Below are positions 13,945 through 44,699 of a stretch of DNA of 64,000 nt, in pieces. Position numbers and translations under genes: made by a program. Location: the NCBI GenBank assembly GCA_040954595.2, contig CM082582.2, forward strand, positions 12,607,777 to 12,671,776, read 5' to 3'. Under the pieces are notes generated by a model. The model worked only from the letters and a program-made list of their open reading frames with translations, was not told where the DNA came from and searched no databases. Origin of the DNA: Balanoglossus misakiensis (taxonomy: Eukaryota; Animalia; Hemichordata). Position 1 is the stretch's first letter, and each line of letters starts with the position of its first letter.

Positions 13945-16900
13945 ATGAGAACGTATTTTCTCAGATGGATGGTGTTAAGTTGCTGTCTCGTCGGATCACA
14001 AGGAGACTACAGTAGCAGTGAGTATTCGTAATTTTCGAAGTTCTAGAAGAACTATAGCGTTGGTTTTGTGGATTTATTTTAGCGCATGTCAAGTAATTGA
14101 AAGCGTTCGGCAGGTTTTACAGTAATGGGCACCACCAGCATATGTAGTCTGTGCAGAAAACACCTATAAACAATTGGCATGCGCAAAGACAACAGAATGC
14201 GTGCAACGCGTAGAAGCCATTCGTCACCTTTGGCCAATAATTGACGACACACACACAGAGCTTGAAGAAAAGGATAACTCACTTCCATTAAACCAGAAAC
14301 AGACGACAATCGTCATGGACTATATATTTTACTATCGAATCGATCGGTTTTATTGACCCTGAGGAAACAAACTAGGGAAAGCGAACAGCTCAAATTCAAA
14401 TCAAACAATTACTTGAGACGCAGGTGGAAATGTTCAAGGTGCACTTCAATTATTCAAAATTAATTTCCGTTTCCACCCTCACCGATCATCGACCCTTGGG
14501 TGTGGAAACGGGGCAAAGGCTACACAAACCGCAAACATGATTGTAAAATAAATTTCAAAGTACTGACATTTAAGGTGCAGAATCGTGAATATAACTATTA
14601 TTGTTCGCAAACCCTGAATGAGGGTAGGGTTGTTTACTTTGGAGTAAACTCCAACATTTTCCCATCAAAACGGATTTCTCCCGCACGATATCTAAATTTT
14701 GACAATTTTGAGTAAAATAATAATACATATAAGTATGGGGCAAGTGCTTTTGCATTAATTGACCATTTTAGACCAAAATGTTCTGCTTTTAAAAGAAACC
14801 CAGCTATTGTAGTTTATTTTCACGACATGGCCCGAACAAAGGAACCCATTCTGTGAAACGAGTGGTACGAACAACCACATGCTAAGTCCGTGCATAGGGG
14901 CAGTAATGTTTGAAAGCTTATATTGAGCCAGCGTTCATTTTACGGAATATGCCATCTCGTATTAACATTCCAAATGTTGTCAACTTTGAAAGGGTCTTTG
15001 TTCGACCTTACAAACCGGAACACAAGAGGGCAACAAAAACACATGACAACAACTTCATGAAAAGACGTATTTATGGGCCTGCTGTTCACAGGAAAGTTGT
15101 CGAAAGATGTCATGATGATTCAGTCTGAATGATCGTTTGTTTCACTAATGTAATGAATCATTTCACACAACCGTGATTTTTAAATATTCGCCTTTACATC
15201 AAGAGACAGTTTATTATCTATATTGTTAAACGTAGCAATTATAATAGCTTTCTTCAGTCGACATCGATCATACAGGTGGTTGCATGACTGGCGTAGTTGT
15301 TGTGCATCGTCACGGTTATTCCCCGACTGTAACTGCAAGGCTTAAGCACAAAGCTCAGTCAACCGACAAAACTCCCAAAAACAAGGTCGGTAGCCATCGT
15401 AAAAAGTATCACCACATTTTTCGGCCAAGGTAGGATAAATTCCCAAAGAACCTGGTAGCCAATTAAAACAACTGACTTGCCCTTTCCTTGCACCCCCTCC
15501 TCTGAGTGGCCAGTGTATTTCACAGACCGTGCTCCCGTGGAACTTTGCCCACAGCAATTCCATCTGACAGTAAATTCTCGCTAATCAATCTTTCCCTTCA
15601 ACCATCGAAGCATGGTAGGGGCCTTATGCTTCGCGTACCTGTTGTCCACCGTCACGGTACTTACCCTCGACTGTATATACCGTAGCACTGCAGTTGTGTA
15701 CACAGAATTCATTCAAGCGATATCGACCCCCACAAACGTGTGTAGCTGGTGTAAAAATCACACATCACTTTCAAATATTTCTTATTCTCCATTTTCATTT
15801 TTCCTTCACAGCTTACTTGTTCTCCGGTATATGCTGGCACAACATCAAACACCGCATAGGAAGGGTCTTCACGGAGCATGTGACGGGATCTGGGTATCCA
15901 CGCGGACAGCACTGCAAGGCGACCGTCATAAGCCCAGACGACCGCTACCGAGTTCTAGTCCTCTTCGAATCGTTCGATGTATATTACAGCGATGGCTGTA
16001 CCGAAGATTTTGTCCGGATTTACGACGGCGATAACATGTTCGACTCGGAGTTGCTGACGGAGCATCCGCTGTGCGGCAACTCTACTCCGCCGTCCTTCCA
16101 GTCGACGGGAAAGACCATCACAGTGGAATTCATGTCTGCCGATCAGTTGCCCAGTACTACTAGGAGTCTCGGTGCCAGGAATCCCCATGGTTTTGAGTTG
16201 GTCTTCAACGTGTTCCTTCCTTATGAAACTGTGAATGGTAAGTTGTTCATGTTCCCCGACGTGGCTGTCTGTCTGTCTGTCTCTCTCTGTCTCTCTCTCT
16301 CTCATGTGCCTCTCTGTCTCTGAGGTTAGTTCAACAACACCTATATCATACACTTGTTGACTTTCTCTTCTCTAGATGGCAACAATGAAACAGCGGCGAT
16401 ACCTGGAACGTTTTGCTGCGAGTCGGGCGACGTTTGCATCGACCAGTCGTTAGTTTGCGATGATTTCTACAACTGCCCCGATAACAGCGATGAAACGGAT
16501 ACTCTACGCTGCCTTGCGAGTAAGTGAGATTTGGGCAGTTTGCAAGTCTCTTTTTGGTGTCTTCTGTTGGTGCTGGTAGCCGTATGTGATTCAGAGCTTA
16601 ATCAACATCGAGGTCGCATGTAATCAAATTTTGTTTGTTTCATTTAGAAAAGACAGGTCTAGAAGAAATTGCCAAGACGTTAGGACTTCCCCTGCAGACT
16701 GTGATAGGTGCGGCTGTTGGATCGATCCTGTTTCTTATTTTGATAATAATCATTATCATCATCGTTTGCTGCTGTTGCTGCTGTGGCAAAGACAAGAAAG
16801 AGGTGAAAGAAATCCATCGCTTTTCGGAGAAGAGACTTCACTCCGGTTCAAGATCAGGTTCGGGCCAGGTGATAGCGAACCCGTACAGGAACTACAGCGG

Positions 16901-17384
16901 AGGGTCGAGGCATGACGTCATCAGGACGGATAACAATAAAGTAATCCACCATTATAGTAAAACATCTGAATCCTTGGTGTCAGTTGGAGGAAGAAGCCAC
17001 CAGAGCGGCGAGGGCCCTGCTTCTCAGACCTTTCCTGTAGAGGGTAGCAATGGATGGGCTCCTCCAGCTCAGGGTTTCTCCTATATCACAGAAGGGAGCG
17101 GAAAGAATTCGACGCACAATTCTGCAACGGAGGGGCCAAAACCCAAACCTTTCCACCTGCAGAAGAAATTCCCTCCCCTGGACGCGAAGGATGACCCACC
17201 CGTAGCCACCAGCAAGAAGCGGGAAGATCCGAAATTGGCCGCCGCGAAAAACTCCAGGGGGAAACGCTCGATTTCGTCGCGTGATGAGGGTTTTGAAACG
17301 GCTAGTGCTTCATCCGTGCGAAGTAGACCAGATGTAGTTTACTACAAGATGTATGACCAACCTCAAGAAAAGCAAAGCCAATAA
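13945..17384 (+). CDS. CUB-LDLa-TM type I membrane protein, paralog 3; exons 13945-14017, 15812-16237, 16376-16519, 16648-17384 (about 459 aa)
   Basis: Exon 1 MRTYFLRWMVLSCCLVGSQG (signal-like) ends at A|GTGAGT in phase 1. CUB exon (GICW..GYPRGQHC..FESFDV..CTEDFVRIYDG..LCG), LDLa exon (FCCESGDVCIDQSLVCDDFYNCPDNSDE..C), TM followed by six Cys. Total 1380 nt in frame. Exon 1 is the least certain part. Confidence 0.82.
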
Positions 17385-23794: not shown

Positions 23795-26575
23795 ACGCAA
23801 CAACAGAGGAAAAACACTTGCCATCAAAACTTGATGAAACCTTATGATTTTGGAAGTCAAAATCTTTCATAGTGAAACAAAGCGAAGTTGATTTGTCTGG
23901 CATCAGTCTGAAGGCTGATACTTGGGTGATGGCACTATTGAAACAATTTTTATCCTCATTCTATCATTCAGTGTTTTATGGGATCATTTTCTGGATCTTA
24001 TGTAAAATCAACCCTTCTTCTTGAAGGAGCCATAGATACACTTTTATTAATTGTCACGTAGAAACAGTTGATTTTCAGTGTTTTACTCTATGGTTGACAT
24101 TATTTTCTTTTACTACAACTTCTTTTCTCCCGTCATTTCTTGTGTCCGTATATTCTTGCTGTGTTCACTGTTAAAAAAGCTTCATGAACAAGCTAGGGTG
24201 ATTTTACTTTTTAGACCTATCAGGCTCCCAAATTAAGTCATGCATTGAATGTTTGACAGAACCTATCATCAGGAATAAAAAAAACTTTAACTCAGATACT
24301 GGTGTGTCGAAGTCCTAGCCTTATTTTATGCAACCAAACTACCCTGATGGGAACATCTGGTTAGTGTTAGCATAATCTATAACTGCGAGCCGTTCTGATT
24401 GGTTATTTGACAATTGGCTTGTACCCAGGTGCTGGGCTTATATGTAAATTAGTCTTCCCTTCATTATACATGAAGCCCCTTTGCATGCATGTCAGCATGG
24501 GCAGGTCTACATCTACTCGTGATTTCTGCAGCAAATGACAGTGCAGTTCCTATCAGCCCCTGGAAACGTCATAATTAGAGGTAAGACTATTTTCCTCATG
24601 TTTATATCTACCTCTTCGAACAGCAGAAGTTTCATGCTATTGAAGCTGAAATTTATGACCATTTCAGTGGTTCAACTTGGACGATGACAAGGCATCTTTG
24701 CTCAAAGCAGCATGGCCGCCGTTGGCTTTGCAGCCTTTGCAATTATGTTGAACTGTTTTCCGTTCAAGATTTACAACAACAGAGTGAAATTATTTCTGTC
24801 AGTTTGAAGGGGTTTACAGTAATGAATGCCTCATACACAGTGAGAGCTTAGTTTTCTTGAATGTTAGAAATTTGATGGGGTTTCAGTGAAGTACTTGATA
24901 GGTAATTTGCAGTTACTTTACTCAGAACTGCATACAATCTCTTATGGGTTCAAGTTCACTGTATACACTAGTGTGTATTCATCAACTCTACCTCATTGGA
25001 CTTGATTTGGGAATTGATTGAGCATGTGTGCGCATATCTAGAATGTCTATCAAGAAGTTCATAGCCATAGAATTTAAGATTTTACAGTTACCATATCCAT
25101 GTAGTGCTTTGGTTCCTACTGGCAAAATATACTAGTATTTCGATTGTAATTTTGAAAGAAGCAAGATGCTATGCAACATTCTATACTAGGTTGATTTCAA
25201 TTTTGACAACCAACACACATCCAAACCACAAAAGTCAACAGACTTGAACGAAAATGATGATGATATACCAACAATTTTTATTTCAAATTTGCGCTATGCC
25301 TGTAAAGACATTAACATTTGTAGTAAGTTATGAAGCTCTGATGAAAAAAAAAGCAGATGTTTGATATTCATAACATAAAGCAAATAAGGCAAAACTGGTC
25401 TATGCCAACATTGACTATTAAACTGTGATGTCAATGTGCTTTGACTGCTTCAGCACTGTGTCTTGTGGTACCCAAACATGGCTATAGAGGGCACCATGAC
25501 GCCTGAAACAGAATCAGATTTTAGGGAAAACAGACAAAAATACAATATACTTTTTTATTACACTTTTTTACATATATAATCTCTGCCATGTTTCTAGATA
25601 TACGGGGCAACATAAAGTTTCAAAGATTTTCCAGTTGATCAGAACTGATAATTAAAGACAAAAAGATTTTTCCAAGACATTTTATTGGGGATTCTCTGTC
25701 CAACACTTTCTGTTTATCAATACTGAAATCTTTGCAAGCTCGTCAAACACTTCACTCAGAAGTTCAGAACCACTCAATGTTGCCATGTGTTTACTCATGA
25801 GTCATCCACGTCATGGACGAGTCTGAATATTGCTTAGTGATCATCATAACATGACATAACATCATCAATCCTTGTAAATATATATTAACTTCTGTGTTCA
25901 ACTGTGGCAGTCCTTGCATTTTCCACAAAAATAAACACTGACCTTTAAATTTAATAATTTGTAAATGAGTTACAATAAATCTAATTTTTAATGCTGGTAA
26001 GTCATGTGATGCCAACAGCCAGAAGTCATGAAATGAAAAAAAAATATTACTTTCATAAGCCCTTCTACCATCTGGGTGCAAAATCAATTTAAAAAGAAGT
26101 TAATCTGGCAAAATTTCACACATGGTTTCAGGTCCATACATAATTCTACCAATAAGATGATATACCATTATACCCCCCCCCCCCCCCCCCAGTACATTTG
26201 TAATCATCATAAATTGATTGGCATGTCTATACCTTGTACCTTATGCAAGTGGGCTGCAAATTGAATTTATTCATTCGTAAAAAGTGGCTGCACAAAATTC
26301 CAAGTCTTGGCTTGCATCATGGAGATTTCAGAAGAAACAAAATTGTTATGTGAAGATAACCTACAAGATTCTATCAGTAGAGCAGCATAGTAATGTTCAA
26401 TCTTTTTCCAAATTTTTATTCTCTTATCAACCCCACAAGATGTTCATAAATTTGTGTTGTGTCAAAGGCAAGACGCCAACAATATCTGTCTGTCCAGTAT
26501 TATGAAGTTTCAGTGACGTTATCACCAATAATTTTGGAAGTCCTACAACTGTAAGTTGCTTCAATAGTCCGATTT

Positions 26576-28693
26576 TCAGTTGGGGAATTCCGGTGGACCG
26601 TGTGGTATGAGCGAGGTGAAAAATGTCGACACAAAGTTCCAAGCAGTTTCCATGACACCAGGCTGTGGTTCCTGATTGCTATCGTCACTATCATCAGTTC
26701 CTGTCTGTTCAGTGGCCACATCGTCATCATTGGAACTCGTCTCCTCCTGTGGCTGATCTTCTGAGGGCGGAGTTTCATCTGGTGAATCTGTTGGTGATGC
26801 GACTGGTTGTTCTTCCTGTGGTGGTTCCTGGGCTTGAGCTGGTGGTGCACGGCTATTCCTTCGAATCTGTCTCCTACGAACTCTGAACCATCCTCCTTGA
26901 TAACTGGAAAATACAGCAATCACACAATGTAAACCGTCGCCACAACCTTAATTACATTCTTCTCTTGCTGCTTTTTTCTGGGAGTATCATCAACTCAACA
27001 CAAGTTATTAATAGTAAACCAAAACACAATCATAGCAGGTAACAGAGTAACACATTGAAAATATTGTACAGTACTTACAGATACATCAATGCAACAAATC
27101 CCATGACTAGCAGGAAACGGTCGATGGATGAATAGAAATACACAATGCTCAGAAGTAATCCAAATCTGCAAAACATATAAACATAGTCCAACCAATCCCG
27201 ATTCATCTCCTCCTCGTCATCATCCATTGGTGGTCCACCAACACCTGCATTCATTCGCACGTTTTGATTGGCCGGCTGGTTGTTGGCTCGGTTTTCATTG
27301 GCCTGTTGGGGTTGTGGGGGTGCAACATTCTGATTTGGCTGTGGTTCCTCCACTGCAGTTTCTGGTATTTGCCCCACTCCACTCTGGGACATGCTGCAAA
27401 GTACACACATACCATTATATTCTTATTTCAATTTCCAAGCATGTACGCACATATACTGTACACATGTACAAATACGTTGAAGATATCAGTATATTGGATG
27501 AACCCTAGCTGCAGGACTTGACTACTCATAGGAACAGGGGTCAAATATATTGTAAACCTACGTCACACAATTGTACTTACTAATGCATGTACTGCGACAT
27601 ATGCTGCATATACATGTGCTGCATCCACATGGCTTGATGTTGCTGCTGCTGGTGATGGTGGTGGTGATGGTGTTGATATTGCGGCATGTAATGTGGCACA
27701 TTGGCCTGCTGGTGTGGCTGCTGATATTGCATCATCATGTTAAACCTGACCGTACCAGCAAAAAAAAAAAAAAGAAGACTTGCAGTTAAAGTTAGATTAT
27801 TGTGTAAGGCACTGATTGGTTTAAATATGTCACATGACAAATATTTACATCTGGCATTCATCATCTCTTACAACCTTGAAAACTCTAATTCCGTGGATAT
27901 AAATTGCATGTACTCACATGAACGGGTTGAATGGGTGGTGTGCTTGCTGTTGCAGCTGGGGTGGTTGCTGCATCCCATTACCTTGTGCATTTGCCACATT
28001 TCTGTGTCTCAGATGGGTTCCATTATCACTGGCTGTCGGATTGGAGGTATTGTGGTTCGAGGTGCCATTCCCATTCCCGTTCCCATTTCCCGCAGTCATA
28101 TTAGCTACACTCGTGGCACACACTAAGTGCACAGTGTGCGCATTGCATTCTTCATACTGTTGAAGATTAAATCATGAAAACCATAAGTTATAATAATTAT
28201 ATACTGCTTACAATATGAAATTCTAATAATCATTGTAAAAGTTGCCAAGACATGTACATGTATGTTGTCTTACCTGACGCAGAATATCTTTCAAAGCCAA
28301 ATGGTCGTGTAGAAGTTTCCCAGAATATATGATTTTTTGGTCTTTTTCGGGCTGAAAGAAAATGGTAACACAGTTATGGCATTAAAGAGACTGTCAGAGG
28401 ATGACTGAGCCATATACGAATGCTTCCTTTCCCCCTAGGAATGTTGTACATGTATCTTGACCTTATGTTGTGTCAAAAATGCAAATTTATAAAAGATGAC
28501 ATCTGAATCCTCATTGTCAAGAAGGCACTGGTAGAAAGCATTAGTCTGTACTTACCGGTTTATTTGGGTAAACATTCGACAGATGACTTTTAAGCTTTCT
28601 CACTGTCCATCCAGCTACGCACTCTACTGTCTGATCATCTATTTTCTGGTTAGGTGCTTTGACTACTAGTGTTATGGTTTGCAAAGGGTCCAT
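26576..28693 (-). CDS. HERPUD: HERP/HERPUD ER-membrane ubiquitin-like-domain ERAD protein; exons 28693-28556, 28351-28274, 28156-27918, 27745-27581, 27393-27079, 26903-26576 (about 420 aa)
   Basis: N-terminal UBL (ITLVVKAPNQKIDDQTVEC..WTVRKLKSHLSNVYPNKP..QKIIYSGKLLHDHL.LKDIL..HTVHLVC), HLRHR, MNA..GPPM.DDEE..NRDWLD, SIVYFYSS..RFLLVMG and the C-terminal TAWNFVSTFFTSLIP..PP are all typical of HERPUD1/2. Total 1263 nt in frame. Confidence 0.93.
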
Positions 28694-29689: not shown

Positions 29690-32600
29690 ATGAGCGAACG
29701 ATCGAACCCCAAAATCCCTCGACAAGAGTCGTTAATGGTGCCCCTGGTCCAGAACCCCTTCGTGCACAAACTGAATTTAACATTACGTGATAAAATTAGG
29801 GTAAGTATGTAATATTCGTGAGTTTAATTTTAGTGCTGGTGTTGTACACATAACTAATTGAACGTGAACAAGCACGTAACAAAGTGTTGTGCAACGGAGT
29901 GTCCAACAAGTTGCATCATCACATCTCAGTGACATCACTGAAATTATACACAAGCACATCAGATATACATGTATAAATTACATGGTACATTATATGTATG
30001 AAACCAAGGCCACGCATGCTATATTTATCCCTGACAACACATAGCAGACAACTGTGCCCTGCCCTTCTGCTAACTGTTTCCACACACTCAATAAACCACA
30101 GAGCAATGACACCTAACCCATAACAAGCTATACAGCTGTCTACTACCTTCTGCAATATCCAAATAAATTTTTATCTGTCTATTCTTTCAGATTGCCATCT
30201 GTACAGTGACACTTCTCCCACTGCGACTGATTGGCATCGTGGTCTTCCTGATCATTGCTTGGATCATAGCGCTCATCGCCTTGGCAGGGATCAAAGATGA
30301 AGAAATGACTGAACCCCTCTCTGGATGGAGAAGGTATGGCAGGCATTAGAGTGTCATTAACCCTTTCACCCCCAGTTCCCTCTTTAGAGGTCCATCATTA
30401 CCATAGGAAACAATGGGTTTGGACCGAACCATGGTGGTGAAAGGGTTTCTGTTCACTTCAAAGAGTTTGTTGGTGGGAAGTTGATTGGGGTCTTTCATCA
30501 CAGATGCCTGTCAGTGTCTGACTCTGATGGATGTAGTGTTTTAGCGAAATGAGTTATATTATCACTCAGTCACAGAATATAGATGCTCGGTGTAGAGCAT
30601 GTAAATAACTCATTATTTGGAAATATGCAGTGGTGTTCATGATGAAAACCCCCAGATATAGTATGTGATACAGAATGAACCAGACACACCCAATGACAAT
30701 AAAACAGTGCAATGCTGTTGATATAAATAGAATTACCAGGGTTTAAAGTAGGAGACATAATGCAAATGTATTTTTTTATTTCCATTTGATTGATCACATG
30801 TGTAATAATGACGAGGGCCACAGACAGTAAGGCCAAAAAAGAAACGGGTTTGCATGATACCAAAAGTCAGACACATCTGTTTGTAACTCAACATATCTCC
30901 TGCACCTGAAAAAAAAGGAAAATGGTCACTGCTGCATTTCCAAATAGTGAGAAGTCGCAAAATTCTTTTATTGGCCTGGGCTGATCACAAATGGAGTACT
31001 GCAGGAGGCTAGGGGGTCACCTGCATTTAAAAGAGAGAGTTCAGAATACATGGCTTTCTAGAGGTGTTTCTTTCAGATTGTGTTCCCTTCCTGATATTAA
31101 TTAACTAGATTTTTCTTACAGAACTGACTAGTGAATGTTTTTATGTGTGTGTCAAATACATGCATGCTATCTCCTTACAGAAGTTGAAGTAACACAAATG
31201 TGGTTGTACATATGCACCAATCTACAAAAGCATTTCATAACCGTCATATTTCATTTATATACAATACATGTACCATATGTCCTGTCACCTCGTTTCGTGC
31301 TTTGTTTGTTCTGTGACTTACATGCACCTTTCATATAACTCACACACACATACACATACAACACATACTCACACACACACACACACTGTCACAGAATATG
31401 CGTCTGTCTCAGATGGCGTCCTCAGCTAACCTTTACTAACCACTACTAACCAACTAACAATATCTGTGTGGATTTAACCTCAAGCTAATAGCAACACTGC
31501 GTTCCTGTAGAATAATCCCTGTAGAGATTGCATCTACTCACCTGCACATTCTTTTTGCCACCATGCAGGAAACTAATCATACCAGTTACCTTGGCGACCA
31601 AACTAGGATTCAAATGTGGCGGCTTTGAAGTCGTAGCCAAGGGTCAAAGGTCAACTACGGCAAGAGCTCCATTGCTTGTAGTTGCACCTCATTCCAGCTA
31701 TTTTGATGCCATTCCTTTCCCTATTACGTTAGGGATGCCAGCTCCAGTGGCCAAAACTGAAATTGGCGATATTCCTTTCTTCAGAAGTATGTCGTACCTA
31801 ACAGTGCAATCGTCCTCACCATTTATTTAACACACCATATTAAATGATGTACACATAAAGTGCCTCTAAAGTATCACAATAGCTGACAATGGTGTCCCAT
31901 AAAACTTCTGGCCTGGTTGCTTTTCCTTAAACAGATAAATTTCCATCAGTTAAATTTATCGTCCAACTGTTAAAAAGTAATACTGGCAAATTCTCTCTTT
32001 TTCATTTTCATTTTCCTGTCTTGTTTTAAACTTGCTCAAAACTCGTCTTTAAAGTTTTGACTGTGAATGACTTTTTTTCATGATTTCCCAACAGATGGTT
32101 GAGGGACTACCCATATTTCTTCGCTCTCAGGGCGGTCTTCTTTTCTTCTGGATTTCACTGGCTGAAATTCAGGGGCCAAAGGGCATCATCAGTTGAAGCG
32201 CCTGTGGTGGCCATTGCACCCCACTCCACTTACATTGATCCTTTAGTCGTCCTTTTCGCTATCGCCATTCCTACTGGTGTTGGACGAATTGAAACTGCCA
32301 CTACTCCCATGGTTGGAAGTACGTTTCTCTGACAAATTCCAAATGAGACAACTTTTATTACAAAACACATTTGCAAATGCTCAGTGTAAACCGGTATTTT
32401 TCAGATACCATAGTCCCCCATGTGAAAAAAAAAGATAAAAGTTAGAAAAATAAAATCTACAGGCTCAAACATTTGTTTTTGAATGTACCAGTATATATCC
32501 TATTCCAAATTGTATTAGGGGAATACAGCTGACCACATCTTAGCAGACTTGAAAAACCTTACTGCTGAATGAAGCTTTGAGCTGGATTTGCTTTCATTGC

Positions 32601-34015
32601 AGTCCTCGCAATAAAGTTGATTCATCATCGTGCACATGGAAGTCCATGTCATCTTCATTAAAGCTAATAATTTGGTCAAATCATTTGTGAGTATCATTTG
32701 TGAGTATAGCTGAATGATTGTCACCAGTGAAGCAAACAGCGCAAGCCGAGAACGCACAAAGCGTTTGCAAATGTGTCCATTGCAGTCATGTTAAAGGCAA
32801 ATCATGGTTGGATATTTATGGGCAGTCTGTTTAAGTTTGCTGAAATAATGTATCGGCCATATTTGTGGCCCAGTTTGCCTTCAACATCCAGCAAATTGTG
32901 CTTTTAAAATTGGCAAAAAAAAGACTTCTGTATTAAAACAAGAACCTGTTTGTCACCCCTGCCAGAACATTATTCACATGTATCACAGCAATTCAAGCAA
33001 AGCAGTCGCCAAATAATCGCAGAAATCATGTGCTGCATTCATTGCAAATACCATGATATGGTTTCCTCGAGAATGTTCTATTACTGACACATGAGGGCGC
33101 CATTTATATTCTAAGATGTTCAATATCGTACCAGAACTCTCCATCAAAAGCCATGGTATTAATAAATATCAGATCAATATCTAAGGATGCAACATTTTAA
33201 TGTTTTACTAAACTAACATTTTTTTAGTTTGAGAAATTTGTGCTTTTAATCTTTTTAGTATGTGTGGATATAAAATATAGCATTGAGAAATTGATGATTA
33301 TAATGTTATGATAGTTATCTATAAATATATCAAGCTTCAAGAGGCAGCATTGATTTAAAAGTGACTCAACAATTTTCTTAGCTTCTGTCATCTTTCTTTC
33401 CTATTTTTTGTTCAATTTTATTTTTACTAAGCATTAGCAAAGGAAAACTTAGCTATGTAGGCATTAGCTGGCATGGCTTTAGATTGCTTTGAATTGAATG
33501 AAATAAAAACTCCATAATCCATGCATGCTTGGTATCCTGGAATGGCTGTTTCAAATCATTCCAACTAATACATCATCATGGAAAATCCTATATCAACCAC
33601 CTTTCCCTACAAATCATCTCCAGTCTGTTTCATATCAGTTTCCTCTTCCTTTTTAATAGCATGGTGAAGTGTTGTCATGGTGTCCCCAAGAGTGTCATCA
33701 TCCTAATCTGCATTATCACTACTTCTCCAATTCATATTCATGAATGAAGTGATGACAGTGGTTGTTGTCTGTTTGTTCATCCACCCCTCCCTCCATCTGT
33801 CTGTCTGTCTGTCTGTCCAGAACACTAAAACAAACACATCAACACTGCCCGTCAATTTGTTTTGTGATGTAATCAATCATTGGTTTTCCCCATATTTACC
33901 ATATGTTGAAGTTGTTTTCCTTGTTCAGAGCTATTTCTCTTATATGCTCACAGGTCTACTGTACATCAGTTTGTTTTGTGGTGTGATCCCATGTGGTGTC
34001 CATCTCTGCACTGAC

Positions 34016-34053
<38 letters not shown>

Positions 34054-37000
34054 TTCATCTCATATTTTATCTGCATTTCAGATTTGCTGTAGACACTAGT
34101 GAATGCTGCTTCCTCTGTGCTTTATGCTTTTTTTCTTCTCCTTCTTTTTCTACCCGGCACATCTTACAACCAGAACCGTCAAGAAACTTTTAGCACAAAT
34201 CGGGCGATTTCAGTTCTTCATGATGGGTTTCCATTATGTAACCGTCAAGGGCAAGCATGCACCGTCTTCAGAGGCACCAATCTTATGTGTAGCACCACAT
34301 AGCTCCTATGTCGATAGTCTACTCCTGTTTTGTGTAGGCTTACCCAGTGTGGTATCAAAGGAAGGCAATTTGGAGACTCCAATCTTTGGAAGTACGTCTT
34401 TAAATCTCTAGTGTTGAATTTAGCATAGTCTTCTTATAATATGTTTAATATGAAGTGTTGAATCTAGATTTTTGTTGTATTCTTTAGAAAAGTTTCTTTA
34501 AATTTCTAGTGTTAATATTACCTTTCTCTGCAGCATAGTCTTCTTAATAGTAACTATAGTGTTTAAAATGAAGTGTAAAATGTAGATCTTTGTCGCAGAT
34601 AGCCGCAGATGTTAGTGGGGTCTAAAGGAAAGTGGCAATGCAGTCAAGCTGTAAACTCTCTCACTGCCCTTTGCTGACATGACTTCAGTATTAAATTGCA
34701 AATCCTGGCTGTACCATGTACGCCCTCAATGATTGAGGCAATCAGAGCTTGTTTGGATAATGCTGTAAAGCCGGTGCTGTTACAAACTGTTTGGATAGAT
34801 GTTGAGGGAGCAATTTAGTGTAAGGCAGGGAGATTCAGAGACACAAAAGGAAGTCAAGGCTGATAGAGAATGTAGTCCAGCTGTAGGTGACTCTAAGATT
34901 TGCTGAGGAAAAAGGGAGGACATCAAAAAAAATGATGTGGGTTTGAAAGGAAGCATCATTACTGGCTCAGTGGCCAGCTCCATCATTTCATTATTATAGG
35001 GTTATTATTCACAAAATAGAGCCATGTGTGAATAGGGGTTACATGCGTGAGGTATTGATATGGAGCCTTGGGCAAGTCTAATAGATGATTTTCGACCCAT
35101 TGAGAGATCTTGCAAGATTTGGTCAATTCCGTAGCAATCGGTTGCTAGCCAACAAGTTGTGCTTTGTATGAAACTAGCAGAGGTACAGTCAGTTTAACAG
35201 AAATTGTAACTTTTGTGTTGTATAACATGATGTGTCACATGTTGTTTTTCCTGTGTCACATGAGAATGTCCTCCCATATAAATTGCCTAGCCTTGCAAGA
35301 TCATGCAGGGTCTTGTGGAGTTTGGAAAATCTTTCTGTCTGTATTTAATTTTGTGTGGGCCGGCCCAAAACATAAAAAATTGTTCCCTTTGGCCAAAACA
35401 GATGCCAAAACTAATATTTCACAATTGGTAAATTTTGCTTGGGGCTAGTCCTTCCTGACTGCCAGCCATTTTCTTTGTCCCTCGAATAAAATGAAATTAA
35501 ACTGATTACATCCATAATTTAATCCGTTAAACTTTAAATCCTGTGATTAGAGTTCAGTAATAATAGTAATAGAGTTTTAAGTGGAAAAGGTTCGCCACAG
35601 GGTCATGACAAACAGGTCTCAAGAGCAGAGAAAATGTAACTGCTTTCAGTAAAATTAATTTTATACAGTTAAATTAATATTCTCGCTTTATCTGCATGAT
35701 CTTATTTCTCAAATTATGAAATTAAAATGCATGCATTTTGCCTATTTTAGACAATTTGCCATAGATTCTAGTTGTTACACTGATTTTATCAAAATGGGCA
35801 TGCCAGTCTGTCAAAATATGCGTCGCAACTGGCCAGTACATAGTGAATAAGCAACATTAATTTAGAATTTATATGATCCTGTATTGAAGTTGATTTTTTC
35901 CGTATAAATACATTCTAATGCAGAAGTTCCCAATTTTTCTAAAGTAAGGTAAGTCTAAGTGGAACTCAAATTTCTGCAAAATTTAATTTCCATTTCAAGC
36001 AAATGTAATAATTTCTGGTCAACATTAAATGAATTCAAATTGGAATTGAAGAATTAAGAAACCTGTTCTGTACCGGGTATGTTCCAAGTAAATGACCTCT
36101 CAGTCAAATCTCTCCTCTGAATTCAAATGCAGTTTCCTTTGAATGAAAAATTCAAAGTATGTAACAAAAGGAATCCAATTTTGACATTTAAATTTAATCA
36201 AGGCAGAATATGTTGAAAGAAGTTCTCATTTCAAGCATGAAAAACAGCTTTTGACTGAAGAATTACAGGCAAATCTGCTGTAAAGACGTGATAAGATTGT
36301 CCAACTCTTACAATAGCTGATTAGAACGTTGCCATGGTGATATGTACTTGTGAAATGTACAAGTCCACTCGATTTTAAATGTGGAGTGCTTCCTGCTAGT
36401 ATCATTCTTGATTTTTTCTGTACAAGTCACGACAAAATATATTCTATTGTACTCATCCCCTTTTTCCGCTATCTGTTCAAACAGCCTTGGTGAGGATACT
36501 TCAGCCAGTCTTTGTATCACGGAATGATCCCAACTCCAGGCAGAATACAATCAAGGAAATTAAACGGCGAGCCCAGTCAGGTGGCAAGTGGCCACAAGTG
36601 ATCATCTTCCCCGAGGGCACATGCACCAACAGGTCCTGTTTGATCGGTTTCAAAGGAGGTGGGTTCTTTGACCCTCCTTAGCAACCGTTGCCAGCTGTCA
36701 CTACCCCCACTGAGCCAACTCTGCTATTGATCAACTAAAAAAAAGAAATCTGAGCATCATGTCCATGTAATGACAGGCACGATGTAACAAGCAGGAACTG
36801 TAATCAGCCACCTTCGAGATCAGACGAATTTGTCTCGTGGCTATACTTTTCATATTTTGTACTAAGAATATATGCCTTCAATTTTATGTGTGTCATTACA
36901 CAGTATACAAAAGAAGCTTAATCCAAGAGAAATATGCTAGGACTCTATATTGTTCTCCAGAATTCTTGCAAGTGAGAACTATCACTGTTGTGAAAATCCA

Positions 37001-40000
37001 ATGCTCCCGAGGTGCTTACACCACCTTACAACTCCCAACAATCTTCTCGTGTTTCTCTCAACCAGGAGCATTCTATCCAGGTGTTGCGGTACAGCCAGTC
37101 GTACTTCGCTATCTAACAGTTCCCGACACGGTGACCTGGACATGGGAAGGACCCGGAGCGTAAGTTTCATTAGTTTGATGACGTGTAGTTCATTTGGATT
37201 TAGCAGAAAAAAGGTTTTTCTAACACTTGATAATACGAAATGTTTTCTCTCTGAAGAACCAGTTCAACTCCATGACCTTTCCATACACTCTGGTTTCTGT
37301 ATCAAATTGTACAAATTGAGTTTTTCTCCCAATTGATTGCTCTTGAGCGTCGTTGTGTGTCTCTGAGGGACGATTGAATAATTGATTGGCTGTTGTGGGG
37401 AGTTTTATTATGCCTTCTTGATGGAGAAGTGGGTTTTATAGAATCAATTAGGGGGGGGGGGATCATTGGATAACCGCATTTCAGGCAAATGCTGTGTGCC
37501 CTAATTGTGCAAAGTGATGTACTTCATGGTTTAATTGGTTTGCGTAAATCCACTGTCATTTTTTTCAGGACACCTGTCTGTCAGGGACAGCTTTTTTAAA
37601 CAAGTGTTGCACTTTGTGCAAAATTTCACCTGCGTTGCATTCTTTTGTTAGAGTGGTACTCTTGTTTTGTAACTGATGCAAGAGTCTCTTTACATTCACA
37701 CCTCTACAAATCGAACAACTTCTTCAGTACCTTTGTTGTTCGGTTTAGACAGGTTTTACTGTACAACACTAGTGGCATTTTCTGTCCGGTAGACTTACTT
37801 TCCTGTTTATCTATACTTTGCTATTTTTTTATCATCATCTCTTTCTGCAGTTACAAAGTGTTCTGGCTGACCCTATGTAACTTAAACAACCAATTAGAAG
37901 TAGAGTACCTTCCAGTTTATAAACCGAACGAAGAAGAAATTAACGATCCCAAGTTGTTTGCCAGAAACGTCAGAGCTGTTATGGCTGAGTGAGTACATTT
38001 TCTTTCAAGCCATTACGCGTAGAACTAGGTCAGTTTATGCATAAAGGGAGGGGAGGGCAATATAATTCCTGATAAAAGTGGAAAAGAAAAATGAGAGTTT
38101 TATCTTTGATGTACATGTAGATTAGAGTCTGTAGACAATAAATCATTTGCCTACTGTGTCTACTTTGACAGTGACCTCCAGCAACTGACTTGCTAGGGAT
38201 TGTGGGTAATATAAGTATGCTGTCACTTTGAACATGGATCATGTGACAAAGAACTCAACTTGGCGAGAACCACAGACTTACAATATAAACAAAGTATTGG
38301 CTTGTAGATTGTGTTGGTATTCGCATACCCGATAGTTTTGTGAAACTGACAGTCTATGCATCAAAGAGCTTTTATATCAATAAATATATTTCCCAAATGA
38401 CGGAACATCTAACTGTCAAATCGTTCGAATGTGGCACCATTATTTCACTCATTTTTCTGTGTGATGACAGGGCACTGAATGTTCCTATAACTGACCACAC
38501 ATATGAAGATACCCGACTGATGATTCAAGCAACAAAGACAGGTTTGCCGCTCAGTGCAGGGCTTGTCGAGTTCCAGAAAATCAGGACCAAGCTCGGGTAA
38601 GAACTAATACCAGAATTTTGTGTTTCAATATGCTCATTGCAAGATAAGGCAATCTTTGTATGAGACTCTGCTATATCTGTCGCTATAATAATAATACAAA
38701 ACTCATTCAACTTTCATGTTTTTCAAATCCAAAAGATAAGAAGACCCAGAAATTTCAATTTCACTTTCTATGTTCCCATCCATTTGTTTAATTAGAAAAA
38801 ATCTGCCGCCTTGAAATTCTAAGTTGTTGACATAAATTGTTATCACTCGAGCATGCATGCAGAAATGTACTTGAAGCATGTGATACCTTTATGTCAGATC
38901 TGCAGCATACCACTGCATTATCAGGTATTTCAATTTAGCAAGGCGACTCTTACAGTTGCTATCTGAAGAATTGCAAAGTTATGAATAACTTATACTGGTG
39001 TCATGCCTAGGACTGAATGTATGTTTCTGTTAGATTGATAAGAGTGAAGATTACCCATGCAGTATTGAACACAATTAATAAATGATTTTACGCACAATGA
39101 ATTTTTAAAGTATCTGCATTCAATATTTTTGAAGTCATTAGAATATATGCAGTCAATACCGTCTTTTGTCACCAATAGCGTCAATACACCACTTCCCAGA
39201 AATCACCAGAATACGTACAGTCGATTTTCCGATGCGCATATTTGCATTACCCCCTCCCAACTATTGTTTGTTCTGAAGTGAGTTAACAATGCCATACCTA
39301 TCAGAAAATGGTCCGTGCCATATCACGTGCCGAAATCGCGAAGCTTGGTGCTTTTTTTCCCATGAATCAAAATACATTGAGTTGATGAAGCCGTAGAATG
39401 CACGGTAAAAAATAAATGTGCAAATAATATGTAGTGAAAATGTTTTTTGTTGAGAAAGCAACAGTAACATTTGTGTTTGAAGTGGCTTGCATCCACACTA
39501 TCACATTTTCTTTTTTGTCTAAACTGGTTGTAGCCAGGTGGTAATAATGACATGACTTTCTCTCATCTGTGGAGTGCTATTGTGACAACAATGTGTGAAG
39601 TGTTTTGTTGACGTGTGTGCGCTCCGACAATTTACACATCTTGTGAAGTTAAAAAAAACCTTGAAACTCAAGCATAAAATGTCACCTGATTGCAAATTGT
39701 ATGAATCAGGAATGAAGGATATGGAAGTACTCAGAGACACTGAGTGGACGGATGCATTGAAGTGATCAAATCGCCTTGTGTTTCATTCTCGTGTCTTTAT
39801 AATATCATGAAGTGTTTTTAGAACAGGCAAGGCTCGAGTTAACATTGTGTCATTTTTGAGTGGCCTTGCTTCAGAATGAGAAATTCAACTGCAAAAGAAA
39901 ACTCTGCTTCCAGTTGCAATCTCCATTGTTTATCAGCAATTCCAGGACGTTTTAAATCGAGTAACCCTGCCGCAAATTGTTGTTGAGTCAATGCAAACGG

Positions 40001-43000
40001 TCATTTTGGTAATCATAAACTAGAAACCCATATAATCCAACATCTGCAGCAATTGGAAGTACATTAGAGTCTTGTGTGAAGAGGTGAAATTGCAGGGCTA
40101 TGAAAGCTGAATGTCTAGGAATCATTACTTCCTCCTGAATTGTTAGTAAAACATAATCGATAAGTGTTGTCGTTAGCCGTTGAGTCCTGTGTGATGGCTG
40201 TTGTTCCAGGTACTGTCAAAGGATGTTGTATCAGTTGATTGCGATGGAAATGCTACAGTGAGGGTCTGAGGTCTGTGCAGTGAACATTTGCTAAACCTTG
40301 ACTTCATCCTTCAAAGGATGAAGTGAGAAATGCACTCACTCAGACTTAGTTCTGTCTATTTGCACGTCCATCCTGTACACTATCTGTTCGTACCGAGGTC
40401 CATCACCACATAGACCTGCTTTGAACCACTGTAAGAGTTGTACTATTTTGAGACAGAGTGATGATTGTTTTCCTGCACACCTTAAAATTTCAAAATTACA
40501 AGGAACAGGAAGTATGGGTATTATTCGAATCAAAACTGCCCTGTTTGATGTCATAGACAATAACGCAATTGGCAAATGTTTTGTCCTTGCAATGAAATTC
40601 TACTGTCATAAACAGACGCGGTACTTTCCATGGTAATTTTTTCTGCCTCAATCAAATTTCTTTTCTTTTTTTGTATATGACTCCGAGGCTTTTTGACAAT
40701 CACATAAAAACTACTTTGTGTTGCCATGGAAACTGTCACTTTTTGCCGATGTGCGATCGCCATAGCAATGCATCCAATATCGTTTATTTAATTCTAACAT
40801 AAATTGATCAAGGAACGTTGGTTGATTGAATAAAAAACTGTGGTTTTTCCTGTCAGGGACTACTTATTGAAAACTGAATAATGTCATTCATCAAATAGGC
40901 TCTTTTTTATTGCCATTTATTGTGTACAAATGAATTGGCTTCAAAACTTAATTGACACTACCGTTAATAAATTTGTCTTAACCCTCTGTGTAACAAATCT
41001 TTTCTTGGTTCATTGCCATGACAACAGCAGCTTGTTTGAAATATAATTGTAATTCGTGTCATTGTTTTCATCGTGCAGACTCGCCATCATGTTTAGATTG
41101 ATTAACTCCCCCTCCCTTTTCTCACTCCCTCCCTCTCTCGCCCCCCTCCCTCCCTATGTCATTGCCCGTTGTATTGGCCTGCTGTATTTATGTGTGAAAC
41201 TTCAAACTTTTCATTCCGTAAAATCTTCACTGCTGTGGGCAAGAATGTTAAATGCCAAAGCCATGCAGAAGTCATTGTTGGAGGGCATGCAGTGCTTCTG
41301 AGAGATTTGCATGTGACACTTGCATATTGGGAGCGTGGGTACAGATAGAGTTGTAGGTTTTAACCTGACTGTCAGTTCATTAACTACAGTGAAACCTAAC
41401 AGCTGCTGCACCACGCTGATTCAATTCAACCTCGACAAATGTCACAGTCCGGCTTATGACAGACGACACAAAGTAACAATGCTCGCTGACAGTTCATTTT
41501 CTTCCCTTCTTTTGACAGCTATAAGTCTGTACTATAGAAATTATTTTCATCAGATTCGCATGCAGGTCACTGTCAAGGTCGTATGAGCTGTGATTTCAGT
41601 TGACGGAGTAGAATTTGCACTGAAAGTTCAGTCAAAATTACAGGATGTCTCGTCTTGAATAGTAGCCATTGAGTTGAGAGAAATTACCGTTCCGGGGACG
41701 AGTCAGAATTAAGTCACATCTCAATTTAGATCTCATTCTGCAAGCCAGAGGGCATTGCAGGACTATGTCAGGCAGTTTAATAATTAATAAAGGGAGTATG
41801 ATTTAATGGAAATGAAATTAACTGCCTGGTTGATTGATTGATTTACAATGGTGGGTAGTGTCTGTATATGACCTGATGCAGATGCACAAATTGCCAAAGT
41901 TTATTTCTCGTGTTCCACGCAGCTGTGTCATCTGTGATTAAATGCAGAACGCTTTATAGAGAGCTGATTGAGCAGACACCCTAGAGAAGCAGCAGGTTGG
42001 GGCTTACAGTCGTCCCAGTCTCCAGTTCAGAAGTCATGTAAAATTCATGCAGTCCTTTTCATGCCAAACTCGCAGTTAAAAAGTTTTGACCCTTTTGAAG
42101 ATATGTAAAAGATTTGTCCATGCAGGAGTGTGCACGGTTTAGAGATGTGTCCAGACAGTCCCCATTATTATAGGTTTCGGATCAGATATCCAATTATTAC
42201 ATGGATATACTATATGTATATCATATGACAGCCAAAAGGTTTTCCGAGAAACATACTTTCTAATGATGATGGTGAGGAAGTAGAAATTCAATGTATTTAA
42301 GTTCATTTGATCTCCTTCCAAAAGAAAAGCACCACCACCACAACTAATCTGTAATCATCTTCTTCTTCTTCATCATCATTATCATCACGTGTCGTCTGTC
42401 CAAACACTCTCAGAATTTGACGGTTCGCAAGTGCAATTGACTCGATTCCTGGGTGGATGGATATTTTGAAGGTCATGCAAAACAAGCAACAGAGAGTGAT
42501 TCTTGACATGATGACTGTCTTTCAATAAATTACCCGAGGAAAGAAAAAAAGAAACATTAGCGGTGCTTGAGGAAATCAGGAAAATGCTTTTTAGAAACCA
42601 TCTGGCGCTCTACTTCTCTGAACATCTGTTGCTCTCAGCATTGAAACTACAGTATTACACTGGTACACCATTATCATCAATTTTGCATCATTTTGTCTGT
42701 CGCAGTAAAATCAACTCCGTGTGCATACTTGTATTTTTATCGGAGTATGAACACAGAAAATGTCCAGGCATCATTTGATCATGCTTTTAGTCCTCATTCA
42801 AAGGAGTTTGAAATATGACCTTACACTTGCAGACTAGGTTATAGCCATCATGAGTTGTTCCTTAAAACACGGCAGAATTAATTTGGACAGCAGAAGTGTT
42901 GCTTCCCAAAACATTGACCAATGTTCCCTGGCCAACTTTAGCAAAACACTGTGTTTACAATTAAGTTATTAACTCTGTGTTGAAACAATCGCTTTGTTAA

Positions 43001-44699
43001 CTCCATCATGTACATGTATTGCCTTTGATTGCTTTCCGTTTTCACCTTTTGTTTCCAGAAATAGAAGACACCATTACCCATGGTGCATTGCTAGACAGGG
43101 TCATGCCTCTTTGTAGAATAATGGGATTTTAATCAGTGAAGTGCATCTCATAAGATTGATCATAAAGCCATAATAAAACCATAAAATGGTTGTGGTAATG
43201 ATATCACTTGGCCATAAAGTAGTACATAATCTCCAGGAAGATTATTCACTCTGCCTCTGTTTTGAAAGATCTTCATATTAGTGGCGGTCCATGTCATGAC
43301 TGATTGTGTTTTTACTTTGAAGTAATCTTATCAACGAGTGCCACACAACCTTACCCTTGCCATGTTGATGCTCAATGGAGATGCACAAATAATTCAAAAT
43401 TGGAATCTGATGACACCATTTTACAGTTGACACCACTGTTTATAATTCAATACACAGTCATACTCATGTTGTGTAAATACCTGACAATAATAATATCTAG
43501 ATTTGTGATCTAAATCTTCACTTTTTTTACCCATATTCTCCCCACCCCAGGGTCACATTTGACAGCGTTGAAAACCTCCTACAAAAGTATGCTGACATTG
43601 CCAAGTCAGATGGCGATGACGTCATTGATCTTGACAGTTTTGCACATTATCTAGACGTCCCAGTGAGCCCAGCATTGAAGGAAATGTTTCAGCTCTATGA
43701 CAGGGTAAGTGTATTTAGGATTTGCAATCAAATATAAGCCTGAAATCCTGCAAGTGTAGATGATTTACTCATCATTCTGAATTTTTCTCTGTTAATCATT
43801 GTGCAGTGTATCTCTGAGGATTCAGCATCCATCGCCAATTAAATCCTTATTGAATATGATTATGGTGAACTGATGGGGGTAGTGATGATGATGGTGGTGG
43901 TGGTGATGCTGATGTTGATGATGACAGTTGTGGTGGTAGTGATTGAAACTTTGTTGTATAATCATGATATTTATACTGTCACCTGTAGGATGGTTCTGGG
44001 AAGATTGATTTCCGTGATTACATCATTGGATGTTCACTCTTATCACAACCAGCAAACAGCGAAGAAACCATACAGCTGGCATTTAAGGTATATTTCAGTA
44101 TTTGACAGTAGCAGATATTACATCTCCAATCATGTAATTTTAAATTTGCAACAATTTTACTCTCTCATTCAAAAATTTTGCACAGTGATCTTTTTATTCT
44201 CAATTTTAAGATACACTGAGCTAGAGTTGCCTTGAGCGAAAAATGAGAAAAAAACCTTAATGACTATGATTTTCGAGGCTCAGATTACCCTGACAAGATT
44301 TTGATTACTCTTCCAGATGTTTGATGAAGGCAACAAAGGCTACATCACCCAAGAGGAACTGACTCAGATTCTTCACAATGCATTCGGCATGACAGACACC
44401 GACGTCGCTAAACTCTTCCAAAATGTTGATCAGAGCACTTCCGGAAAAATTACCTACGGTGAGCTGGCAGTTATATACTGGGAGTCAACCTCTTCACACA
44501 TCTGCTACCATATCATCTCTTGTCATTTTCTGTTTCTTGTTTAAACTTTCTCTCTTTCCAACCTCCTCCAGATCAATTCAAGGCGTACGCACAGCAGAAA
44601 CCAGAATACGCAATGTTATTCAAGACGTACCAAGAGATGAATGCTGAAAAGGACGGCAGTACCGAACAGCGGCTGGGAGACAAACTGAAAACTGAGTAA
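29690..44699 (+). CDS. LPCAT2: Lysophosphatidylcholine acyltransferase (LPCAT1/2 family) with C-terminal EF-hands; exons 29690-29800, 30191-30333, [one of 31569-31786 / 32095-32318 / 34174-34391], 36485-36658, 37066-37159, 37851-37988, 38471-38596, 43551-43704, 43989-44087, 44317-44458, 44572-44699 (about 508-510 aa)
   Basis: Motifs include PRQES..NPFVHKL, TVTLLPLR, PLSGWR, APHSSY.D (motif I), QPVFVSR.DPNSR, FPEGTCTNRSCLI.FK.GAF.PG..VQP, DTVTWTW.GPG and TDHTYED; EF-hands DRDGSGKIDFRD and DQSTSGKITY; C-terminal KLKTE resembles an ER-retrieval signal. Phases are consistent. Assignment to LPCAT1 versus LPCAT2 is not resolved. Confidence 0.93.
30361..30445 (+). mobile_element. About 85-bp MITE, copy 3 (LPCAT intron 2)
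   Basis: Terminal inverted repeats CCCTTTCACC...GGTGAAAGGG, preceded by TTAA. Confidence 0.72.
31425..31458 (+). promoter_or_regulatory. Tandem array of four CTAAC/TACTAAC motifs (branch-point or STAR-protein sites) upstream of LPCAT exon 3A
   Basis: gctaac-cttTACTAAC-cacTACTAAC-caACTAAC lies 110-145 nt upstream of the exon 3A acceptor. Confidence 0.6.
31569..31786 (+). CDS. LPCAT alternative exon 3A (218 nt)
   Basis: tgcag|G..AGA A|gtatgt; encodes KLIIPVTLATKLGFKCGGFEVVAKGQRSTTARAPLLVVAPHSSYFDAIPFPITLGMPAPVAKTEIGDIPFFR. Confidence 0.85.
32095..32318 (+). CDS. LPCAT alternative exon 3B (224 nt)
   Basis: aacag|A..GGA A|gtacgt; encodes WLRDYPYFFALRAVFFSSGFHWLKFRGQRASSVEAPVVAIAPHSTYIDPLVVLFAIAIPTGVGRIETATTPMVG. 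Confidence 0.87.
34018..34050. repeat. (CAT)n microsatellite upstream of exon 3C
   Basis: About 11 CAT units seen directly. Confidence 0.9.
34174..34391 (+). CDS. LPCAT alternative exon 3C (218 nt)
   Basis: accag|A..GGA A|gtacgt; encodes TVKKLLAQIGRFQFFMMGFHYVTVKGKHAPSSEAPILCVAPHSSYVDSLLLFCVGLPSVVSKEGNLETPIFG. Confidence 0.88.

Follow-up and report, generated by a model that had tools for sequence, protein, structure and literature searches.

In a stretch of 64,000 nucleotides from the acorn worm Balanoglossus misakiensis (GCA_040954595.2, contig CM082582.2, positions 12,607,777 to 12,671,776 of the forward strand; the whole stretch is called the window below), we found one LPCAT gene in which the third exon exists in three homologous copies, A, B and C, each coding for the HxxxxD motif of the active site. 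That these exons are real and mutually exclusive is very likely. The best explanation overall, which we regard as reasonably probable, is a single gene with three exclusive copies of exon 3 that retains a pair of exon types as old as the bilaterians, the two types having later been separated onto different vertebrate paralogs.

Gene structure and choice of the third exon

The gene model comprises 11 exons on the plus strand (29690-44699). Its parts are listed here with positions in the window; the two exon classes and the two residue positions named in the list (Ala115 and the kink Gly of mouse LPCAT2) are taken up in the sections that follow.

29690..29800, plus strand: LPCAT exon 1, coding from the ATG (gene model; tblastn with the Ptychodera flava protein)
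30191..30333, plus strand: constitutive exon 2, first membrane helix, end phase 2 (gene model; tblastn)
31569..31786, plus strand: alternative catalytic exon A, 218 nt; placed in class I by the best tree; carries Thr where mouse LPCAT2 has Ala115, and Arg instead of the kink Gly
32095..32318, plus strand: alternative catalytic exon B, 224 nt; member of a hemichordate clade that the best tree puts in class I; Leu corresponds to Ala115
34174..34391, plus strand: alternative catalytic exon C, 218 nt; of class II and similar to LPCAT2/4; Gly corresponds to Ala115
36485..36658, plus strand: constitutive exon 4, AGPAT motif 2 and motif 3 (PEGT), start phase 1 (gene model; Pfam)
37066..44699, plus strand: constitutive exons 5-11 with motif 4, EF-hands and stop, at 37066-37159, 37851-37988, 38471-38596, 43551-43704, 43989-44087, 44317-44458 and 44572-44699 (gene model; Pfam; tblastn)

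Exons A, B and C have ag/gt ends, one common open frame, entry phase 2 and exit phase 1, and their pairwise identity is 28-33%. The coordinates, lengths, splice sites and phases given for them in the original prediction, which a model had made from the letters of the window, proved exact. HxxxxD (motif 1) is present in all three copies, and each matches PF01553, although under the curated cut-off for an exon taken alone. Exon 4 is above this cut-off and carries the motif 2 position and PEGT, the motif 4 region lies in exon 5, and the C-terminal EF-hands were recognized in exon 10 (PF13499, E 4e-9). Motif II had been assigned to the switched exons; it is actually located in constitutive exon 4, at His+38 to +43, where AGPAT motif 2 occupies residues 184-189 (PMC8753187, Table 3), and these offsets were checked on Xenopus LPCAT2. 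A profile made without A, B and C and run on the six frames of the window returned exactly these three exons (E 8e-31 to 6e-25), from which we conclude that there is no fourth copy. Neither a fourth copy nor a second alternative cluster in the gene was found by hidden Markov model (HMM) or tblastn, the next HMM match having an E value of 0.29. By far the longest intron is intron 7 (38597-43550, 4954 nt), inside which tblastn found no exon copy. A degenerate tandem duplication lies directly past exon C (34383-34593), and within one of its repeat families the sequence at 34481-34529 is a copy, at 71%, of the donor region of exon C that is missing the GT.

When the reading frames of eight splice combinations were tested, a full open reading frame (ORF) resulted in three, all of them single inclusions, with 508, 510 and 508 aa for A, B and C, respectively. 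The skip of all three copies led to a stop at codon 99, and the three double inclusions and the triple inclusion to stops at codons 160-166. As the stops of these five combinations are situated far upstream of the last junction, their products are predicted targets of nonsense-mediated decay. One copy per transcript is hence what the frame predicts here, and it matches the predicted isoforms of P. flava and insects. The frame test agrees with the earlier claim that only inclusion of one copy is productive, and the mutually exclusive use that had been proposed is supported by the same frame logic together with three P. flava RefSeq isoforms containing exactly one exon each.

These isoforms, X3, X1 and X2, are already in RefSeq as automatic predictions. 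They have a common 82-aa prefix and a common suffix of 352-353 aa and differ only in exon 3, where they are the one-to-one orthologs of A (78% identity), B (72%) and C (72%), respectively. The constitutive region is 88% identical to the P. flava LPCAT2-like protein over 349 columns and in its tree joins Saccoglossus and Glandiceps with a support of 96, which very likely places the gene among the enteropneust hemichordates. Two Saccoglossus records differ solely in exon 3, one being A-like and the other B, and Glandiceps carries exon B. Exon B is 57% identical to its Saccoglossus and 61% to its Glandiceps counterpart, is kept in four hemichordates and forms a hemichordate clade supported at 100/100; the query of longer proteins with exon B itself gave no match, and its orthologs surfaced with the P. 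flava query. Exon C is 53% identical to Apostichopus and 51% to Xenopus LPCAT2.

The copies are unlikely to exclude one another sterically through closely spaced splice sites. Between them lie introns of 308 nt (A-B) and 1855 nt (B-C), and the AG-free zones extend over only 40 nt before B and 74 nt before C, which both argue against steric blocking. No docking site and selector of the Dscam type was evident: of 96 inverted repeats, the 25 longest include no shared arm able to pair with each of the three exons. Exclusivity is probably brought about by regulated splice-site choice, with nonsense-mediated decay clearing the products with zero, two or three exons. Two motif clusters were noticed upstream of exons A and C:

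31426..31458, plus strand: CTAAC/ACTAAC repeat cluster, 110-143 nt upstream of exon A
34074..34173, plus strand: acceptor region of exon C, rich in pyrimidines and containing 5 YGCY motifs

The CTAAC cluster contains 2 overlapping triple matches against 0.06 expected, and 2 were reached in 1 of 100 shuffles. Upstream of A there are 5 CTAAY per 150 nt, and 0.16% of the window tiles reach as many; the cluster resembles a Quaking/STAR-protein or branch-point-like element and may act as one. The 5 YGCY per 100 nt before C, a density reached by 0.8% of the window tiles, may act as an MBNL-like cluster. Neither the CTAAY nor the YGCY cluster was clearly common to the arthropod loci described below.

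Probable descent of the exon types

Phylogenetic trees were built from 56, 29 or 42 chosen exons and from 37 or 21 constitutive rows, a selection from several hundred proteins that omits most unnamed representatives as well as fish, mammal and hymenopteran rows nearly identical to others. The exons fall into two classes. Class I consists of arthropod exon 1, mollusc type 1, hemichordate A and B, and LPCAT1 including that of the lamprey, and class II of arthropod exon 2, mollusc type 2, hemichordate C, Apostichopus and LPCAT2. Support for the split was 90/95 (56 rows) and 94/95 (29 rows) in the unrooted exon sets, and when the tree was rooted by Trichoplax, Pocillopora, Sanderia and Amoebidium, with LPCAT4 added, class I formed a clade of 20 rows (97/93). 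The constitutive-region tree follows the species tree and groups LPCAT1 and LPCAT2 at 99; LPCAT4 is absent from the constitutive set used for this tree and for the approximately unbiased (AU) tests, and a rough FastTree placed it apart from LPCAT1/2.

Monophyly of the vertebrates on the exon was rejected (p 0.033). A joint tree in which each lineage duplicates alone was likewise rejected in AU tests (p 0.001 under LG+G4 and 0.007 under LG+C20), also if the vertebrates were left free (p 0.0002 and 0.010); the constrained trees for this joint test were searched under LG+G4, with the outgroups also held together. As a control, the species constraint was accepted in four of four constitutive windows of 72 columns and in their sum (p 0.24-0.58), and the summed windows rejected the class split (p 0.001). 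An ancient duplication of the whole gene into class I and class II genes was thus rejected on the constitutive columns.

The LPCAT1 exon stands in class I (97/93), away from the LPCAT2/4 type, and the constitutive region unites LPCAT1 and LPCAT2, as expected of paralogs younger than the exon duplication; both are marks of splice isoform separation. We consider a bilaterian origin of the exon pair likely, and the separation of ancestral exon types between LPCAT1 and LPCAT2/4 nearly as likely. The original prediction had seen in the three exons a parallel to the diversification of the vertebrate enzymes by gene duplication; the exon phylogeny suggests that the relation is probably one of descent, with one ancestral exon type each for LPCAT1 and for LPCAT2/4. 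We infer that a single duplication of exon 3 preceded the protostome/deuterostome split and left a derived copy, class I, upstream of one close to the ancestral type, class II. Class I would then have been duplicated again in hemichordates into A and B, and after the vertebrate gene duplications LPCAT1 would have retained class I, and LPCAT2 and LPCAT4 class II.

The same switch is visible outside the hemichordates. Two HxxxxD exons run together in 13 of the 120 protein matches listed (of 1349), all 13 from insects and all with class I preceding class II (6 placed by the tree, 7 read by eye); no vertebrate-named protein with two such exons was among these 120, which are proteins only. Isoform pairs differing only in this exon exist in Athalia, two Schistocerca species and Bemisia. 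In addition, 60 metagenome loci were scanned for the exon pair, many of them short contigs. The tandem pair was present in four (three distinct sequences), with exons of 218 and 215 nt, ag/gt ends and class I first; 24 loci had one exon (one of these a weak match) and 32 had none. Exon boundaries, phases and the class-I-first order of the arthropod loci agree with those of the window. Between the molluscs Biomphalaria and Bulinus, identity is 91% downstream of exon 3 and drops to 32% within it, which points to two alternative exons within one gene. A protein known from a Logan contig only (P0132) carries the class II exon, and a barnacle model contains both exon types inside a duplicated block.

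Several further loci were noted in these searches. The sole exon between exons 2 and 4 is of class I in L013, L016, L018, L035 and L038, and the sequence of L018 groups beside molluscan class I, which suggests that class II may have been lost in one lophotrochozoan lineage. LPCAT-like ORFs without introns were seen in L025, L029, L030 and L040; they contain a segment resembling class II, are in some cases frameshifted at the 5′ end, and are possible retrocopies. In the Anopheles atroparvus model P0003, two LPCAT units are fused, of which one has a class II exon and the other a class I exon; the second unit is a long-branch mosquito duplicate, and the mosquito paralogs as a second clean case of isoform separation were not supported.

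Predicted acyl-CoA preference and competing explanations

Exon 3 spans the second membrane helix (81-98 in the model), motif 1 and the sequence up to the PxxG kink. The numbering of mouse LPCAT2 maps exactly to Xenopus LPCAT2 by the offset from the catalytic His (RK104/105, D151, R166, P173-G176-R177 and motif 2). A modest model of the P. flava C isoform matched PlsC 5KYM (E 1.7e-4, TM 0.61 by target); its mean pLDDT was 68, with residues 124-156 inside the exon below 50, and as it is unreliable there, the pocket positions rest on PMC12315963 and on residue offsets. A PDB sequence search with the exon profile gave no solved relative, and the ESM Atlas generic acyltransferase clusters only. In mouse LPCAT2, Ala115 is the predicted floor of the pocket, and the exchanges A115L and A115W change the acyl-CoA preference, with A115L lowering that for 16:0 (PMC12315963). 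At the equivalent position A has Thr, B has Leu and C has Gly. Of the aligned rows, 22 of 23 in class II and none of 33 in class I have Gly there; this count involves some circularity, because the classes are defined in part by the same column. In PMC12315963, activity was also lost when a loop following motif 4 was exchanged.

The gene is predicted to give rise to three enzymes that would differ in acyl-CoA preference, their sequences being identical apart from the second membrane helix, the HxxxxD dyad and the loop after it; judging from the residues named above, we lean toward such a switch of specificity by exon choice. LPCAT1 prefers saturated acyl-CoA, including 16:0, and LPCAT2 is the inducible synthase of platelet-activating factor (PAF). 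A bolder proposal, to which we would give slightly less than an even chance, is that LPCAT1, with its saturated, surfactant phosphatidylcholine, and LPCAT2, with its inducible PAF, are fossilised splice isoforms, whose catalytic exons diverged before the last common bilaterian, as mutually exclusive alternatives of a single gene, and are still spliced in insects, molluscs and acorn worms. The 72-residue exon would be the main determinant of the difference in acyl preference between LPCAT1 and LPCAT2 and would have gained a third specificity in hemichordates.

Independent exon duplication in arthropods, molluscs and hemichordates, with one copy converging each time on LPCAT1-like residues under the same substrate-shift selection, would do without a bilaterian-old pair, and a number of observations indeed weigh against common origin. 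Convergent tandem exon duplication is common among humans, flies and nematodes (PMC9741552). The exon alignment has only 72 columns, many of them functional; convergence at sites tied to function could pass for common descent, and the columns used for diagnosis are also among those that shape the tree. The AU tests on single lineages were mostly non-significant, leaving monophyly unrejected for arthropods (p 0.20), ambulacrarians (0.21) and lophotrochozoans (0.12) in the 42-row set, with values of 0.047 for insects, 0.085 for molluscs, 0.137 for hemichordates and 0.121 for protostomes in the 29-row set. Class II is an ancestral-like grade holding LPCAT2 and LPCAT4 and no clade. The best tree found joins A and B, and their placement is soft, with neither B+LPCAT4 (p 0.30) nor A+LPCAT2 (p 0.21) rejected; a one-residue deletion is common to A, LPCAT2 and insect exon 2, and exon B has the class II Arg at His+20. 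Losses must be assumed for the five loci with a sole class I exon named above and for L003, which likewise has one catalytic exon only between exons 2 and 4. Furthermore, the RefSeq isoforms are predicted models, the mollusc exon pair is deduced from proteins, and the chordate exons compared are those of vertebrates. Nevertheless, we consider independent duplication unlikely: the joint constraint was rejected under two models whereas constitutive windows of equal length accepted it, class I is one clade, and boundaries, phases and class-I-first order are the same in arthropods and in the window.

Even if the exon pair is of common origin, the copies may be real and old but not three working specificities, with the A isoform weak or inactive and regulatory, or with isoforms distinguished less by substrate than by localisation or regulation. 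Exon A invites this explanation. The kink residue is Gly in 116 of 119 proteins and Arg in exon A and otherwise only in P. flava X3; activity was lost in the G176A variant of mouse LPCAT2, and exon A is also missing the near-invariant Arg at position 116, so that its isoform may be weak or atypical. Ligand-binding residues are usually conserved in such exon pairs (PMC9741552, section 10), and motifs 2-4 are common to all isoforms. The effect of Ala115 also has no simple map: LPCAT1 with its bulky Met prefers 16:0, yet A115L cut the use of 16:0, class I molluscs have a small Cys or Ser at this position, and Ser or Ala occurs there in three added class II rows (marsupial LPCAT4, barnacle and L033). 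On the other hand, every copy retains His and Asp, exon A is 78% identical to its P. flava ortholog, its Saccoglossus counterpart retains the kink Gly, and the copies differ at the acyl-selectivity position Ala115. We therefore regard this explanation as rather unlikely, if slightly less so than independent duplication. The claim of three active sites agrees with the HxxxxD in every copy and is in question for exon A with its Arg at a near-invariant, required Gly. It is very improbable that a single exon is in use and the others are decaying duplicates, because frames and splice sites are intact in all three, their orthologs at 72-78% identity are annotated as separate P. flava isoforms, and B persists in four hemichordates.

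Exon B has a Pro immediately after the catalytic Asp, as has marsupial LPCAT4, and a B+LPCAT4 clade is not in the best tree. From the residue itself, convergence on the use of lysophosphatidylethanolamine is possible.

Known systems and neighbouring genes

Vertebrate LPCAT1 (LPLAT8), LPCAT2 (LPLAT9) and LPCAT4 (LPLAT10) of the AGPAT family have the same motifs 1-4 and EF-hands and apparently the same N-terminal two-helix anchor (PMC8753187, PMC4280512, PMC12315963). Exon C resembles the LPCAT2/4 exon, and A and B fall with the LPCAT1 exon; the vertebrate enzymes are separate paralogs, whereas here one gene has three alternative catalytic exons. Tandem exon substitution near active sites and splice isoform separation are already known kinds of event. 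Exclusive homologous exons at a binding site, with catalytic residues in every copy, are described for KHK, ACOX1, PKM and PFKP (PMC9741552, section 10; PMC7954323) and for oyster AOX (PMC5589949); in contrast to those enzymes, LPCAT swaps the whole catalytic dyad and the pocket-forming helix, in three copies that are only 28-33% identical. Splice isoform separation as described by Abascal et al. 2015 (PMC4494069) for CALU, U2AF1, MARVELD3, FYN and others has the same pattern of a paralog keeping one exon and of an exon tree conflicting with the gene tree. The 10 homologous cases in its Table 1 are dated to chordates or later, with exons still alternative in human, whereas the LPCAT case would go back to early bilaterians; it is recognized from the invertebrate side, and its resolution in vertebrates appears to be complete. 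The single insect ortholog of LPCAT1 and LPCAT2, Drosophila LPCAT/CG32699, has LPCAT activity and localises to lipid droplets (PMC4293825); in the main text of that paper the word "splice" is absent and the CG32699 isoforms are undiscussed.

No publication on alternative catalytic exons of LPCAT was found among titles and abstract openings, while tables of the Drosophila mutually exclusive exome or Kassiopeia may list the gene. LPCAT is unnamed in the main text of PMC4494069, PMC9741552 and PMC7954323, and is missing from one supplement of PMC9741552, which includes a D. melanogaster gene list, and from 6 supplements of PMC7954323.

If the proposed history is true, the difference between the catalytic exons of LPCAT1 and LPCAT2/4 predates the genes themselves, and invertebrates retain natural exon swaps on an identical background, in which the determinants of acyl-CoA and acetyl-CoA selectivity would be directly testable. 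The enzymes concerned make lung surfactant and platelet-activating factor. The isoform separation would also be older than the homologous-exon cases tabulated in PMC4494069, and knock-downs and gene models of insect and mollusc LPCAT would pool or fuse two enzymes.

Besides LPCAT, the window contains exons at 26500-27422 on the minus strand that apparently lie head to head with it and have no matching Pfam hit; we take them to resemble HERPUD. A single-ORF gene of the FIT (fat storage-inducing transmembrane) family is located at 165-1409 on the minus strand, with a basic, Ser/Arg-rich N-terminal extension of ~170 aa, and represents a second lipid-droplet gene, 28 kb from LPCAT. Exons coding for CUB domains were found at 4370-4888 and 10610-11155 on the minus strand and at 15619-16323 on the plus strand, and near each there is an ORF with a hydrophobic stretch, a Cys cluster and a basic tail (2163-3638, 9553-10281 and 16602-17384). 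Together, they likely encode a tandem family of putative single-pass CUB proteins with one copy inverted.

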